Positions 3,030 through 60,287 of a stretch of DNA of 64,000 nt are shown one piece after another. Below the pieces are notes generated by a model. The model was given only the letters and a program-made list of their open reading frames with translations, ran no database searches and was not told the origin of the DNA. A program made the translations under genes and the position numbers. This DNA is from Octopus sinensis (Eukaryota), in the NCBI RefSeq assembly GCF_006345805.1, contig NC_043005.1, positions 51,894,001 through 51,958,000 of the forward strand, read 5' to 3'. The first letter of the stretch is position 1; every line of letters begins with the position of its first letter.

Positions 3030-3139
3030 CGTGTGTGTATACGTGTGTGGGTGTGTAACTGTGTGTGTGTGCATGCGCATGACTGGATGCATGTAACTTT
3101 CATTTTTGGACAATCAGCTATTGAAGGAAAATGATAATG

Positions 3140-3780
3140 TTATAAGAGATCTCTACTGTAAGGACACAGACACATACCATGGCTTAGATTAAAGATCGTG
3201 CCACCCTTTCTATACTAATAAGAACATCCCATTTAATGTAGCAAAACATACATGTTCAAGAATTACTGACATAATGAAACGAAAGAGACAAATGGTTGAA
3301 CTACAAATAGTTCATCAGGAAATATATCCGCATAGATCAGTAAATTTTACTATAATCAATGCAAAAGTTATGTGAATTTCTGTCCTGTGTCGAAACCCTC
3401 AAAGTGAAGGTGAAGACAAACACAAGAACATAATTATACCATTTGTAGTTTCCCATAATCCTCGAAATGATAGTATGCTACAATTGGCAAAGTGATAATT
3501 TTCAATCTTACACCAATCATTAAATCTCAGAAAAGTAATTAAAGAAACACAAATTATCGACGACTGACGAGAACTATAAAATTTTAAATGACACTTAACA
3601 AAGGTGAAATTCTTACTAGAAGAAGAAGAAATAATGTACATTACGAAATGCGGAGAACTAAATTCTTGCACATGTGAAATAACTGAACTAGGCAAAACCG
3701 GAATGATTCAAGAATGGGAAAGAATTGAAAATTGAAGTTCTAGCCAAAACAAATTTTATAATAAATTGGACTCTAATGTT
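3140..3780 (+). mobile_element. Degenerate Penelope-like element fragment (RT thumb to linker region)
   Basis: Fragments DLYCKDTDT, HPFYTNKNIPFNVAK, IIPFVVSHNPRN and KCGELNSCTCE resemble the PLE post-RT motifs (YxKxTD, HPxxxxxxIP, PFVxxxNP) and the Cys-rich linker. Many stops. Confidence 0.65.
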
Positions 3781-5710: not shown

Positions 5711-6088
5711 ACATACATAGGGCTACACAACACACACACACGCACACGCGCATATATATGTTTTCAGGAGATATATAAAGATACGTCTTCGTTCTCTTAG
5801 TCATTTCTGGTCGAGTTATATCCCAAATACTCATGAACCTCCTCACAACCAAGCTCTGTGTCTTAATGTCCATCTGTCCGTCCACTTAATAGCAAACTTC
5901 TAATACATACCTATATCTCCGAGCGCATATTCTAACCCCAAGAAGGAACACGATGAGGCCATGCTACTCGTTTTGTAAAACAAATATTATGCCTCAGTGA
6001 TATGTAATCCCATTACTTAGTTCAAACTACTCATATCAATAGGTGCTATCTATTATTTGACTAACTGAGAAAATAATTTTAGTTTAAA

Positions 6089-6137
6089 TTTCGCTGATGA
6101 AGCAAGTGCGTACCGAAATATCTTGATATCTCGAGAG
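6089..6137 (+). ncRNA. Degenerate hammerhead ribozyme-like motif
   Basis: TTTCG-CTGATGA-agcaagtgcgtacc-GAAA-TATC-tt-GATA-TC-t-CGAGA. Core and stem III are intact, stem II is broken, and there is one extra nucleotide before the 3' strand of stem I. Confidence 0.45.
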
Positions 6138-6255
6138 ATAAAAGTAACGAATAACCTCGGAAATGTCAATTGTATAGCGACGCTTCACCGACTACTAGCC
6201 TGAAATCTTGCAAGCACAATCTACCAGTTACCTTTTGATTGCTACAGCATGCTAA

Positions 6256-6291
<36 letters not shown>

Positions 6292-21410: not shown

Positions 21411-22317
21411 TAGGGTGTGTTCAAAACTATACGACTTCATTTTTTCCCGCCAATACCAATGCTGCATAGGGAAAAATCATTTGGGTGGTAGGTGATGTTA
21501 CTGTACCCCCACATGCATGAATATTTTCACGCCGGTAAGCAACATCAGTTCCCAGTTGTTCCGCCTAGAACACAGACGTGTGGTGCACGCTCCCTGGATT
21601 TTGTTTTCACCGAACACGCTGAGCAGAGATATTGCATCAAGTTTTGCTAAAAGCTTGCTGATATTCATACTCAAGCCATCCATAAAATTCAGCAGGCCTT
21701 TGTCGATGATGCCATGGGCGAAACTGAGACTAAGGTGTGGTATAACCGCTCCAAACGTGGCAGCACCTCGGTGGAGGGCGAGGCACGCTTAAGCAGGCCA
21801 TCCACAAACAAAGACGAGGAGACGATTGAGAAGGTTCGGCGAATAGTCTTGGAGGACGGTAGTGTAACATTGCAGGAAATTTCTCATGAAGTGGGAATAG
21901 GCACAGGATCAGTGAATTTGAAGCATTTGTGCATCGGAGAGTCTCGGCGGAATTCGTCGCCATGGCGCCGACGGAGCGGCAGAAGTAACTTAGCATGGAA
22001 ATAGCTCAGGACATGCTCGGCTGTGTAAACTACGGCCCTCGCTTTATGAAGGCCATCATTACTGGTGATAAGATATGGGTTTATGATCCCTGCTCTGTGC
22101 GTTCGGTTGTCTTCCCGGAAAACGCAAAAACCGACGTGCGCAAACTACATGTCTGTATTCAAGATGTAGCAGCCAGAAATGTACGAGGCGTACGGACATA
22201 ATATTTAACGCATGCGCACGAAGGGTGTCAGCACCTTCCATCCAAAATATTTTGTCCGCGAGGCATTAGTATTGGCAGGAAACAAAATAAAATCTGATCT
22301 TTTTAAACGCACCTCGT
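21411..22317 (+). mobile_element. Internally deleted mariner element
   Basis: Degenerate inverted ends (GGTGTGTTCAAAA...TTCCCGCCAATACCAATGC / GCATTAGTATTGGCAGGAA...TTTTAAACGCACC). Transposase pieces EQRYCIKFC, RPSTNKDEETIEKVRRIV and IITGDKIWVYD. Confidence 0.82.
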
Positions 22318-29838: not shown

Positions 29839-32321
29839 TGGAGAGAAATATGGTCGGCGAACGAACAACCAAAAAAAAGGAGTATCAAAATAACAAACTC
29901 GGCATCTGAACAACTTTGGACCCCCCATAACAACTGAAGAGGTCACCCAGGCACTGCAAAGACTAAGCAACTGGAAGGCACCTGGGCATGACATGATCCC
30001 CAACTTCTGGTTGAAATATCTAACAGGAATGCACAAAAAGCTGGCTGAAAACTTTAACAACATACTAGCAGAGCCAGAGACAATGCCTGAATGGCTCACG
30101 AAGGGGAAAAACCATCTTAATTCCCAAATAAAATGAGACAGCAAAATCAGAAAACTACAGACCAATAACATGCCTCCCTACAATGTTCAAGGCATTTACT
30201 GCAGTGAATCGCAAAGGTTGAACAAGCACCTGTACGAAAACAAACTGTTCCCAGAAGAGCAGAAAGGATGCCGCAAAGGCTCATATGGCTGTAAAGATCA
30301 ACTAATGATTAATAAAGCCATAACTGAAGACAGCCACAGAAAGAAAGAAGAAAGGCCTCAGTATGGCCTGGATTGACTACAAAAAGGCGTTTGATAGCAT
30401 CCCCCACACATGGATCCTCGAAACTCTAGCCATTAACAAAGTAGCACTAACAATCATAAAATTCATAGAGCACTCTATGAATAAATGGCAAACAGTCCTA
30501 CACCTCCAAACAAAAGAGGGACTCATGAAAACCAAAGAGGAATATTCCAGGGAGACACGCTCTCTCCACTCCTTTTCTGCTTGGCACTGTCACCTCTATC
30601 TGATATACTAAATAGAACTGGATGCGGATATAAATGTTACGGCAAAACGATCAGCCACCTTTTATATATGGATGACCTAAAACTATACGCTGCAAATGAC
30701 AAACAGCTGGAAACACTATTAAAGACAGTTCATGGATTTACCAAAGAAATAGATATGAAATTTGGATTAGAAAAATGCGCCAAAGTAACCATGAAAAGAG
30801 GAAAACTAGTTAAGAGTACCAACATCACACTAGATAAAACCAATGAAATAAAAGAATTAGACCAAAGCCAAACTTACTAATACTTAGGAATCCATGAACT
30901 AGATAAGACACAACACACACAAATGAAAGAGAAAATAAAAAAAAGAATATTATAGACGAGTTAGATCAATACTAAAAACAGAGCTCAATGCTAAAAACAA
31001 GATAATAGGTATTAACACTTTAGTTGTCCCAGTTATAAGTTACAGCTACAATATCCTTAACTGGACACGAAATGAACTGACCAAAATAGATAGGAAAACA
31101 AGAAAAATAATGACAGGATCTAGGATGCATCACCCAAAATCTGACATAGAAAGACTATATATACAACGTATAGAAGGTGGTAGAGGCCTTATACAGCTGG
31201 AAAACTACTATAAAATAACCATCATAGGACTGCAAAAATATCTACTTCAGAAGGAAGGAAAACCGATTCAAATAGCGGCAAAACACGAGCAAAACAAAAA
31301 ACTGTTCTCAGTATTTAAGGAAGCTGACAAATACAAACAAGAAATCATACCACCTAATAAATATGAAGAAGAAGAGGAAGATGATGAAGAAACAACAAAA
31401 GCTATAAAACAAATGAAATCCAAACTAAAAACAGAACAGCAACGAACCATGATAAAGCGATGGCAAGAAAAGCCCCTTCATGGTAAATACTGGACTAAAC
31501 TAAACGCAAAAGAAATAGACAAAGAAAAATCCCAGCAATGGTTGAGAAGCTCAGGACTCAAAGCAGAAACAAAGGGATTTTTAATTGCAACACAAGACCA
31601 AATCCTCCCCACCAGAAATTACCAAAAACATGTAATGAAAAGAAATATTACAAGTAATTGCAGAATATGTGGAGGTGGACAAGAAACAATAAATCATATT
31701 ATCTCTAGCTGCCCAGTCCTGGCTAAGAAGGAATATATTCACAGACATGACAGAGTTGGAACCTACATACATTGGAAGCTATGCCAACATTATGGAATAA
31801 CAACAGAAAAAAGATGGTATAGGCACACACCAGAAAAGGTCACAGAAAACGAGAAAGCAACCATACTCTGGGATATGCTGATACACACAGATAGAGAAAT
31901 TAAGGCCAACAGACCAGATATAGTTGTCAGAGATCATGAAGAAAAAAATGCTTTCTAATTGATGTATCAATACCGGCAGATGACAACGTGTCTCTAAAAG
32001 AAATGGAGAAACTCTCATAATACAAAAACCTGGAAATAGAGGTAACTAGAATGTGGAATCTGAAAACAGAAACAATTCCTATCATAGTAGGTGCATTAGA
32101 CATGATAAAAAAATATTCAGACAAATACATAACAAAAACACCAGGACTTACAAACACACATAACATACAGAAAATTGCACTACTAGGCACTGCACACATC
32201 CTACGCAGAACACTTTCCATACAATAACCATCAGAGCATCACAACAAATCACAGCACATACCCAAGGCACACAGAGCTGCGCTCGGTAGTGAAGTGAAAG
32301 CACGCTATAAAACTAAAACTA

Positions 32322-34302: not shown

Positions 34303-35042
34303 AATCTCCTTTTCTTTGCACGTTGTTTTCACGACCGTTCCTTGCCTGCATTTCCTCCGCTGAATCTATAAGTAGCGACAAGCTTTTTAGCGGCCGGAGA
34401 CTAACTAATTACCTCTTCGTAGTGATATTGTAGCGAGCTATGTAGGGACATAGCGAAAAATTAAAACTGAAATGGTAGCGCTTCTGGCATGTCCGGACAA
34501 GAAGATTACAAGTACCTCTTTCCGTTCTTCGCTCGGTTCTTTACACTTTGATCTTTAAAAGCTATGTAGTGATAGATATCGATGCGGAGCTTGCGTACTG
34601 TTTTTCCAAGTGATGCCAAAAACGTTGAAGGTTTTCATCTGTTTGATGTAAACACGTGTTCGAAATCGAGATTTATTATTGGTCACTGAGGATTTCAAAG
34701 GAATTCGCCTTCTTCGGCTATAGGCAAACTGTCTATGACGTTGATTAGTCCAACATCTGTAGGCAGTGGAAAGAGAAAAAGAACTTCGACATGGTTAATT
34801 TTGTGTTAGTTACACTCGATATTTCACACACACATACACACACACACACATGCATTCTCTCTCTGAATGCGTGCCCATATATATATATATATATATTTAT
34901 ATATAGAGGGCATTATACATACATGCCAGAAGGCATTATACATACATGCCAAACGCTAAGAGGGACAATTAGTCATTTCTACCAAAAATATTACTAATCC
35001 CACCGAATGCAATTTTTCAAAGTAAGACATTTAAAAAAATAT

Positions 35043-35090
35043 AGACCTGTATCACAGTGATTTCATACTTACGTACTCATCAGCAGGCCT
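35043..35090 (-). ncRNA. Minimal type-I hammerhead ribozyme
   Basis: Minus-strand RNA AGGCCUG-CUGAUGA-GUAC-GUAA-GUAU-GAAA-UCAC-U-GUGA-UA-CAGGUCU. It has the full catalytic core, a 7-bp stem I, a 4-bp stem II with a GNRA loop, a near-palindromic stem III and an AUA cleavage triplet. Confidence 0.82.
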
Positions 35091-35295
35091 GAATGTATTA
35101 TAAATAAACAACGACCCTGCCCCGCTTAAGCCGATCAGCTATATATATATATATATATATATATATACGTATACACACAAACAAAACACACACATACATA
35201 CATACATACATACACACACATCCACCCACCCACACACGAAACACATATATGTATATATACATTTATATATACATATTTATATGAAGGTATATACA

Positions 35296-35343
<48 letters not shown>

Positions 35344-37427: not shown

Positions 37428-37908
37428 GTTCTTTATTACTATTGACTGTGGTTATGCTGGAGCACGGGCGTTTTAGTTGAAGAAATCATCGCCCGGACGT
37501 ATTCTTCGTAAGCTTGGTACTTATTCTATCGGTTCTCTATTGCCGACCCACTAAGTTACGAGAACCTACACACACAAACGTCGGTTGTCAAATGTCGGCG
37601 AGCTGGCAGAAACGTTAGCACGCCGGGCGAAATGCGTAGCCGTATTTCGTCTGTCATTACGTTGTGAGTTCAAATTCCGCCGAGGTCGACTTTGCCTTTC
37701 ATCCTTTCGGGGTCGATAAATTAAGTACCAGTTACGCACTGGGATCGATGTAATTGATTTAATCCGTTTGTCTGTCCTTGTTTGTCCCCTCTGTGTTTAG
37801 CCCCCTGTGAGTAGTAAAGAAATAGGTTGTCAAGCAATGGTGAAGGGACAGACGCAGACACAAACACACACACACACACAAAATATATATATAAAATAAA
37901 TATAAATA

Positions 37909-52258: not shown

Positions 52259-53500
52259 TGCTAGGGAACGAATGAATTATCTTAATTATATTAAAGGATA
52301 AGAGCTAAGTGTCCTTATAGTGCAGTGGGTAGGGAACAGAAGAAGGACGTGTGATAAAGATGGAGATACAAACGCAAAAGATCAAAATAATCAGTGATGG
52401 ATAAATAAGACATAAAAACTAAATAAGATGTAACACATAAATACTAAGATATATACGTGTTAAATAGAAAATTAAGTGATTAAGAAAAGTATGTTAATAT
52501 AGTGTGTAACTTCATATGTCTAGATGTGACATATTTATGTAGCTGCGAATAAATATATTCATGTATCTGTGAATAGAGAAAGAAAAAAAAATAAACGCAT
52601 ACTAAATCATAAGTAGTCGTAAAAGCATTTTCATTTATAAAATAATATAGATGCTAAAAATACGGAAAAAATCCAGAAAAAGAAATATAAATATTCGTCA
52701 CACAAAATGTATGTCATAAAGTATCACAGAATTTTACTTAAAAGAATATATTGCAAAACATCTGTGAAACGTACGTTCGGATACATTCAAATGAATAGTG
52801 GAGAATCAGAGACTTCTTTAAACACACACAACAACACACACACACACAACACATACACATGCACACATACGCACTCATGCACTAACACACACACACACAC
52901 AAATACGCACACACACACACTAACACACATGATAGAAAGTGGACTTTATTCAGAATGACTACAATTGTTTCTACACATTTTTACATTTGTTGCGATGTTG
53001 TGTAATCATTATCAACTATTCAAGGTGTAAAATGCCTTTCTTCAGGTGATTGTTTATAAAGTCTTTCCTTTCACATCTCGTCATTTCATTCAGTGTGATA
53101 GTTCATATCCAAAGTGATCTGTCATTTTCAGTAGTTCGCAGACAAAACAACCTATAGATACAGTGACACAGTGGCAGACAAGAAAACATATTCAAAATAC
53201 AAAATACAAAGACAAAGAAACTGACAAAAAATGGGTCAAAAAATGATCAGATAATAAGGTAGAAGTGCCAAACAGAAGTAAAATTAAATTAAGCATTTAG
53301 TGGAAATAAAATGATAAAGTAGTGAAGACTAACCATTTCAGTACTTATAAACTGCTTCTTTCTTTCTGTGAAGGATCTAAATTACCTTCTGTCTCTACAC
53401 TCGAATCAGCCTCTATTTAAAGTTAAAATTGTACATGCTTTTTGTGTCTAAAGAAGTTAGTATTAGTGTAATAGAGAAGCAAACAAATTTACACAATACC

Positions 53501-53734
53501 TATTTCTTTATTACCCACAAGGGGCTAAACACAGAGGGAACAAACAAGGACAGACATAGGTATTAAGTCGATTACATCGACCCCAGTTCGTAACTGGTGC
53601 TTAATTTATCGACCCCGAAAGGATGAAAGGCAAAGTCGACCTCGGCGGAATTTGAACTCACAACGTAACGCAGACGAAATACCGCTAAGCATTTCGCCCG
53701 GCGTGCTAACGTTTCTGCCAGCTCGCCGCCTTAT
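53501..53734 (-). mobile_element. SINE family B, full length, with 13-bp TSD
   Basis: Highly similar to 37592-37824. TSD TTTACACAATACC at 53488-53500 and 53735-53747. Confidence 0.93.

Positions 53735-59779: not shown

Positions 59780-60287
<508 letters not shown>

Follow-up and report, generated by a model that had tools for sequence, protein, structure and literature searches.

Hammerhead ribozymes are well known in animal tandem repeats, so the presence of such a motif is by itself ordinary. Animal non-LTR retrozymes consist of a low-GC, noncoding tandem unit with one type I hammerhead each, a description that also fits the family reported here, and their mobilization by Penelope-like elements (PLEs) has previously been argued from the co-occurrence of the two and from likeness to PLE pseudo-LTRs (pLTRs) (PMC7229834; preprint 10.64898/2026.07.22.740005). 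A PLE protein was shown to cleave the two strands of its target and to extend both, and two internal starts on the RNA define a 30- to 40-bp tail (PMC11167929). PLE insertions are marked by a tail at one end, inverted 5'-truncated arms, and microsatellite targets, and the origin of the tails and inverted arms has been named as open (PMC8557442). The minimal hammerheads (min-HHR) of PLE pLTRs have an extra base between positions 9 and 10.1, a helix II of 7 to 8 bp, a helix I of 4 to 5 bp, and a G10.1-C11.1 pair; like the motif described below, they are of type I, have a palindromic helix III region, and come with a dimer model (PMC4209133). Nonautonomous elements of Chlamys, e.g., MRC1, are likewise noncoding head-to-tail copies and are moved by a PLE (PMC8557442).

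The motif studied here lies on the minus strand at positions 35043 to 35090 of our window, the 64-kb stretch of Octopus DNA that was analyzed (G000:C9:51894001-51958000). Every core nucleotide is present, as the first-pass annotation of this DNA had reported, and the hammerhead is complete; the CUGANGA, GAAA, and UH core with helices I to III and an open helix I make it type I, an assignment based on sequence and covariation. Read 5' to 3', it begins with the helix I 5' arm (2.7 to 2.1; 35084 to 35090), followed by the core C3-U4-G5-A6-U7-G8-A9 (CUGAUGA; 35077 to 35083), of which position 7 varies among subfamilies. Helix II (35065 to 35076) is the GUAC-GUAA-GUAU hairpin described before, with 4 bp, a GUAA loop whose last base is the A at 35069, and G10.1-U11.1 at its base. 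The GAA of the core occupies 35064 to 35062. The palindromic helix III, A15.1-UCAC-U-GUGA-U16.1 (35051 to 35061), has 5 bp around one central base and is the predicted dimer interface. The predicted cut falls after A17 (35050), between 35050 and 35049, exactly where the earlier reading had placed it, and the triplet concerned, AUA, is a natural but slower cleavage triplet (PMC1636495). The helix I 3' arm (35043 to 35049) ends in U1.7 at 35043, the predicted partner of the loop 2 A. The usual G10.1-C11.1 pair, highly conserved in hammerheads but not absolute, is absent from the window motif, which has G-U instead.

Two of the proposed stems need amendment. The 7-bp stem I holds for its six inner pairs, all of which change on both sides across subfamilies (6/6), but doubt falls on the seventh pair, since the base with which U1.7 covaries is the final one of loop 2, not 2.7. 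The stem III palindrome AUCAC-U-GUGAU is present, but a monomer cannot close all five pairs over a single base and would be limited to 4 bp with a loop of three bases. A descriptor search of both strands of the window matched this motif only, while 400 dinucleotide shuffles of the window gave two looser matches in total, one of them equally good. The covariance-model search suggested by the first-pass annotation came back empty: no hammerhead model reached the Rfam gathering score in the window, and none was among the 43 matches to E 10 in positions 34700 to 35300.

The 2.72-Gb genome was searched with positions 34960 to 35140 as the query, which yielded 1318 candidates; 22 of the 40 scored matches were 100% identical over 181 nt. 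At other loci the motif belongs to a unit of 477 to 482 bp, measured from cut to cut, with 33% GC and a longest open frame of 54 aa. Consecutive tandem units each carry a whole type I hammerhead in locus L020 and others, and arrays reach about 35 units, with 15 to 35 units at dispersed loci. The stretch 70 to 95 nt past the cut, used as a 3'-side pattern, has 1006 exact matches, and a relaxed motif pattern has 4266 matches genome-wide against 0 for its reversed control. At least ten variants, with units of 474 to 487 bp that are 64 to 95% alike, occur among 20 loci chosen from the first 100 relaxed matches and 25 sister-family loci. The link to retrozymes and Penelope-like elements that had been drawn from the motif is borne out: the type I hammerhead sits inside a retrozyme repeat whose homologous copies keep the core and whose genome-wide relatives show covarying stems. 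The family is a young, noncoding non-LTR retrozyme.

Units within one insertion, both arms included, are mostly of one haplotype, and 11 of 19 arrays have fixed variants found nowhere else among 98 units. An array of about 35 units at L054-L055 (G000:C2:8216300-8233800) has mixed haplotypes, unlike the other arrays. Retrozyme arrays of three contigs contain the same 1.7-kb insert (97 to 99% identity; L051:1572-3272, L052:2109-3803, and L053:2175-3874), accompanied by a 23-bp duplication of unit positions 378 to 400 and holding a broken frame that ends in a CCHC-like knuckle. This frame is LINE ORF1-like and presumably Tx1-like, and the insert appears to be carried as cargo by the retrozyme. 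A more distant second retrozyme family has a 475-bp unit, 3827 candidates, the helix III palindrome ATCGG-T-CCGAT, and ends at ∼150 and ∼235 nt past the cut (L102:84-360 and 6019-6290; L176-L195). Another hammerhead type, at L107:5521, lies in a separate repeat and has the palindrome CTCGAG; its helix II begins with either a G-U pair or an unpaired G.

Covariation was assessed in an alignment of 14 distinct rows, related to each other and hand-picked to represent subfamilies. All three helices covary: 13 of 16 helix pairs show changes on both sides, with pairing in 96% of cells versus 22 to 42% in slid controls. The shuffle count (0/500) cannot be read as a probability because the rows are related. 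Among 82 distinct whole motifs, the last base of loop 2 is complementary to position 1.7 in 77 (74 A/U, 2 U/A, and 1 G/C), while 2.7 and 1.7 are complementary in 35. The loop 2 A/U1.7 contact is known from the structures of the Schistosoma and sTRSV hammerheads (PMC11875169), and here the predicted contact is kept, with compensated swaps. Because the helices covary and the loop 2/1.7 pair covaries with them, the motif resembles a canonical hammerhead rather than a min-HHR. The label "minimal" given to it in the first-pass annotation therefore does not hold: helix I has 6 to 7 bp, helix II has 4 bp, no extra base follows A9, and the loop 2/U1.7 contact is predicted, features that are canonical according to PMC4209133 and PMC11875169. 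We conclude that the motif is a real hammerhead ribozyme sequence for which self-cleavage is predicted.

The G-U pair at 10.1-11.1 had been regarded as a possible impairment of this copy. A genome pattern search found 182 exact copies of the window hammerhead variant, all with the same pair, and most relatives have U-U or another non-G-C combination there: of the 4266 motifs, 350 have G-C and 2609 have U-U. In the 33 loci on contig C1 of the group closest to the window copy, 48 motifs have A-U, 10 have G-U, and 2 have A-G. Copies with the helix II of the window but G-C at 10.1-11.1 also exist. G10.1-U11.1 is thus a subfamily state and not decay of the window copy. In a hand count among the first 100 matches listed, motifs with U-U had same-strand neighbors at 16 of 32 loci and motifs with G-C at 8 of 87, a contrast that is confounded because the sampled G-C family is older.

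The dimer suggested for the palindromic helix III is the best modeled fold of two isolated motifs, a double hammerhead at −32.1 kcal/mol versus 2 × −13.2 (−26.4) kcal/mol. The minimum-energy fold of positions 35035 to 35100 is not a hammerhead; the core UGAU pairs with the AUCA that starts helix III, and the fold is no better than those of shuffled sequences (z = −0.96). The hammerhead monomer costs 3 kcal/mol more than this misfold and has a modeled probability of 0.004, in models that omit tertiary energy. The monomer hammerhead probability was <0.04 in 11 of 12 subfamily representatives, and the dimer was the best two-motif fold in 9 of 12. In a natural two-unit stretch, helix III cross-pairing reached only 0.05 to 0.06, and extension of helix I beyond 7 bp was unfavorable. 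In these models, then, the palindromic helix III favors dimer over monomer. As a circle, the unit self-pairs strongly (z = −7.0; four other units, −3.9 to −5.7), and the opposite strand also folds well, though less so (z = −2.8 to −4.8). A consensus fold of seven whole units has 21 of 80 pairs changing on both sides, with an unfavorable covariation term (+2.2) and a badly aligned most distant row; it offers as a lead a long helix that pairs unit ∼19-60 with ∼290-335 and encloses both 3' ends described below.

Insertion anatomy was examined in two sets of dispersed loci, with unit positions numbered from the first base after the predicted cut. The first set comprised every C1 locus that the 3'-side pattern listed, 33 loci with 59 arms. 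There, 57 of 59 arms end on (TA)n at one of two fixed 3' ends 122 nt apart, 31 at unit ∼155 (short) and 26 at unit ∼277 (long), whereas 5' ends are scattered. Head-to-head inversions are found at 24 of the 33 loci, and 23 of the 24 combine one short and one long end. The second set comprised 39 further loci, after 10 had been dropped as duplicates, cut off, or unplaced; 28 of 30 inverted loci again had one short and one long end, giving 51 of 54 for both sets. Two ends of the same kind were seen at no locus in either set (72 dispersed loci). Sister families have the same two ends, 85 to 135 nt apart. A fold-back origin of the inverted arms would put both 5' ends at one unit position; the two ends lay within 25 nt of each other at 6 of 24 loci in the first set (P = 0.035) but at 5 of 30 in the second (P = 0.21), and this origin was rejected. 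At L264, the inversion junction contains short recopied pieces that start at or beside the cut site. The marks of PLE-mobilized insertion are all present (two 3' ends, an inverted 5'-truncated arm, and a microsatellite target), with a 122-nt tail that is longer than published ones. From the tail, the inverted truncated arms, and the (TA)n targets, we infer that the family is likely mobilized by a Penelope-like reverse transcriptase.

The window itself holds one 5'-truncated retrozyme copy of 247 bp (34895 to 35141, minus strand), made of unit positions 391 to 482 followed by 1 to 155 and 98 to 99% identical to the L020 tandem unit. Similarity to relatives spans exactly this interval and ends at (TA)n on either side, in the target tracts at 35140 to 35167 (5' side of the insertion) and 34877 to 34894 (3' side); no target-site duplication is readable in this copy. 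Such duplications exceed 4 bp when non-LTR retrozymes have them, and in the family both flanks are (TA)n. Its 3' terminus (34895 to 34910, minus strand) is the short end at unit ∼155, the inferred start of reverse transcription, an end shared by 31 of the 59 arms of the unbiased C1 sample. With one ribozyme and half a unit, it could not circularize by itself and probably represents a dead-end insertion; no second copy lies elsewhere in the window. A 23-bp tandem duplication, missing from some of the subfamily units, immediately precedes the short 3' end at positions 34905 to 34951. The window also contains a decayed PLE coding remnant at 3097 to 3714 (tblastn E value of 3e−16), broken non-LTR retrotransposon frames at 30324 to 32238 and 59962 to 60243 (RVT_1 and zf-RVT matches at 30485 to 31955), Tc1/mariner transposase remnants at 2022 to 2372 and 21651 to 22004, and an inverted pair of 171-nt sequences, 93% alike, at 37657 to 37827 and 53498 to 53668 that are probably two copies of a dispersed repeat.

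The genome contains young PLEs that encode reverse transcriptase (RT) and GIY-YIG domains, with proteins of 781 aa and 775 aa among them. In the young 781-aa family all 40 scored ends are identical; its copies terminate on (TA)n, 26 with a short end and 3 with a tailed one (∼38-nt tail), and of 30 loci the only inverted one combines both kinds. Unit positions 146 to 192 show a weak likeness to the end of the 781-aa family (E value of 0.044 over 47 nt), and alignment to the whole 3' regions of 11 PLE copies was no better than to shuffled sequences. Five loci of the 781-aa family yielded no hammerhead, and the unit is absent from all 49 PLE loci examined. A tblastn search of 125 loci with four PLE proteins gave matches in 8, which lay outside the repeat arms in all 5 with mapped arms. 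The partner search scored 150 of 5029 GIY-YIG candidates, so that a rare partner is possible. Hammerheads beside PLE open reading frames at L102 and L107 were considered as those of the partner and rejected, as they belong to separate repeats. At L102 (G000:C1:207472000-207480100), a direct repeat of 1676 bp lies on both sides of a 781-aa PLE; it combines the 3' end of that PLE with 1.1 kb of flanking sequence, a retrozyme copy included, and may represent a 3' transduction into the pLTR.

What serves as the template can be approached through the arms. Of the 59 arms in the C1 set, 43 extend across the cut, and a single one terminates no more than 5 nt from it, versus 1.2 expected. Among the first 67 listed matches to the G-C sister family, 42 run through the whole ribozyme, 11 end 5 to 50 nt before the cut, 2 end at it (∼1 expected), and 12 end after it. 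Because 5' ends are not piled at the cut, the insertions bear no sign of cleavage in vivo, and because copies read through the cut site, the templates were uncut or religated. Three insertions (C1, C4, and C7) have a cargo-bearing unit beside plain units, a mixture that a one-unit circle cannot give and for which a multiunit template is therefore needed. The haplotype shared within an insertion is predicted by a circle and also by a uniform source array. We lean slightly toward ribozyme pieces ligated into circles of one or several units as templates; otherwise, uncut multimers would take this role. In Xenopus, eight of nine retrozyme dimers failed to cleave (preprint 10.64898/2026.07.22.740005). 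The unit is found in 19 of 24 listed sequencing runs, none of them recorded as RNA. The assembled contigs of four runs all bridge the head-to-tail joint, and three guessed to be RNA cover 28 to 29 of 29 bins; bridging is uninformative about transcription, ends, or circles because tandem DNA gives it too. Contigs of run X11 (guessed RNA), which carries another organism label, differ from L020:1388-1868 mostly by A>G (24) and T>C (25), a pattern that A-to-I editing of double-stranded RNA, or alleles, would give.

Together, these observations make it very probable that the motif is the hammerhead of a 482-bp non-LTR retrozyme, likely copied into (TA)n by a PLE RT/endonuclease, and that the window has caught one truncated copy. 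The arrays would be transcribed; two ribozymes would join by way of the palindromic helix III, their slow cleavage assisted by the loop 2 A/U1.7 contact, and the pieces would perhaps be ligated into circles of one or several units. At a (TA)n target the enzyme would then cleave both strands, with cDNA starting at unit ∼155 from one strand and at ∼277 from the other, producing inverted, 5'-truncated arms. The alternatives differ greatly in weight. That the motif is a chance match is as good as refuted: the missing Rfam match and the unremarkable local fold would suit it, but only one equally good match arose in 400 shuffled windows, and thousands of homologues have covarying helices. Spread as a satellite at the DNA level, by unequal crossing-over or rolling DNA circles with an inherited ribozyme, is very improbable. 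Long homogeneous arrays do exist and local amplification has been proposed (preprint 10.64898/2026.07.22.740005), but fixed 3' and variable 5' ends, inverted arms pairing short with long ends, and (TA)n targets at 72 loci are marks of retrotransposition that DNA recombination does not predict. DNA-level spread is thus largely refuted, although arrays may lengthen after insertion. A pLTR hammerhead of an autonomous PLE, with the window copy as its truncated 3' end, would account for the PLE ends, tail, inversion, and (TA)n target, and PLEs do carry type I hammerheads in pLTRs (PMC4209133). We consider this improbable, since the arms pass from one unit into the next for as many as ∼35 repeats and contain no RT + GIY-YIG frame between pLTRs, the tblastn matches fall outside mapped arms, and the unit is common to none of the 49 PLE loci examined, in an analysis that scored 150 of 5029 GIY-YIG candidates.

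A harder question is whether the ribozyme is merely a passenger, with uncut linear multimers as templates and a hammerhead that is weak or decaying in the successful subfamilies; we regard this as possible but rather unlikely. It would explain why G10.1-C11.1 persists in just 350 of 4266 motifs against 2609 with U-U, why U-U motifs lie in arrays more often than G-C motifs among the first 100 listed, why arms read through the cut, and why plain and cargo units are mixed, and cleavage by the Poseidon ribozyme was dispensable for insertion in vitro (PMC11167929). Against it, the core, the helices, and the tertiary pair are kept by compensatory change between units only 64 to 75% alike, arrays of 15 to 35 units occur at dispersed loci though internal priming and truncation would shorten linear templates, and the array contrast is confounded by the age of the sampled G-C family. 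Moreover, the axolotl retrozyme Amex2, whose helix II likewise begins with U-U, does cut, its monomer by 22% in an hour and its dimer better (PMC7229834). The retrozyme reading that we prefer can be extended, quite tentatively, to a single scheme: circles would be direct templates of a PLE enzyme acting as a dimer, whose two subunits, in fixed partnership, would each take one of the RNA sites 122 nt apart and together prime the two strands of a single cut (TA)n target, and the most successful subfamilies would have tuned the ribozyme down, by loss of G10.1-C11.1 and a dimer-only helix III, so that circles stay closed. If true, paired priming on circles and a tuned-down ribozyme would provide one mechanism for PLE tails, inverted arms, and retrozyme mobility.

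The family offers a compact system in which to test how retrozymes move and how PLE tails form. A short noncoding RNA with near-strict pairing of short and long ends (51/54) occurs here next to young, intact PLE proteins, which makes both processes testable in an in vitro assay that is already published. The naturally occurring states of 10.1-11.1 (G-C, A-U, G-U, U-U, and A-C) form a panel for asking whether weaker ribozymes spread better. The literature searched yielded no report of a cephalopod retrozyme or of an Octopus hammerhead PLE, although the supplements of PMC7229834, PMC4209133, and the preprint may list the family; the main text of a 2026 Octopus repeat annotation contains neither "ribozyme" nor "retrozyme."

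Compared with other animal non-LTR retrozymes, the family shares dimer-to-multimer arrays, a strongly self-paired predicted circle, and PLEs in the same genome (PMC7229834; preprint 10.64898/2026.07.22.740005). Its units of 474 to 487 bp are above the 170 to 400 nt of PMC7229834 and inside the 51 to 972 bp of the preprint. It differs from described retrozymes in the 5-bp palindrome of helix III and in having mostly lost G10.1-C11.1. Targeting of (TA)n, two fixed ends, and inverted short and long arms are not described for retrozymes in the available text of PMC7229834 or the preprint, and the word "tail" is absent from the main text of the latter. With PLEs that carry a C-terminal GIY-YIG domain, the family shares two 3' ends, a tail at one end, an inverted truncated arm, partial tandems, microsatellite targets, and a hammerhead upstream of the start sites (PMC11167929; PMC8557442). 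Unlike them it has no open reading frame, and its tail is 122 nt, versus the published 30 to 40 bp and ∼38 nt in the autonomous family of this genome. In contrast to min-HHRs, the motif has no extra base, a 4-bp helix II, and a 6- to 7-bp helix I, appears to keep the loop 2/U1.7 contact, and has mostly lost G10.1-C11.1. Chlamys elements of the MRC1 type have a 3' end like that of their autonomous partner and mostly carry no hammerhead (PMC8557442), whereas here the hammerhead is conserved and there is no clear likeness to a partner. The family is therefore a known kind of element, set apart by its 122-nt tail, its 5-bp helix III palindrome, and its loss of G10.1-C11.1.
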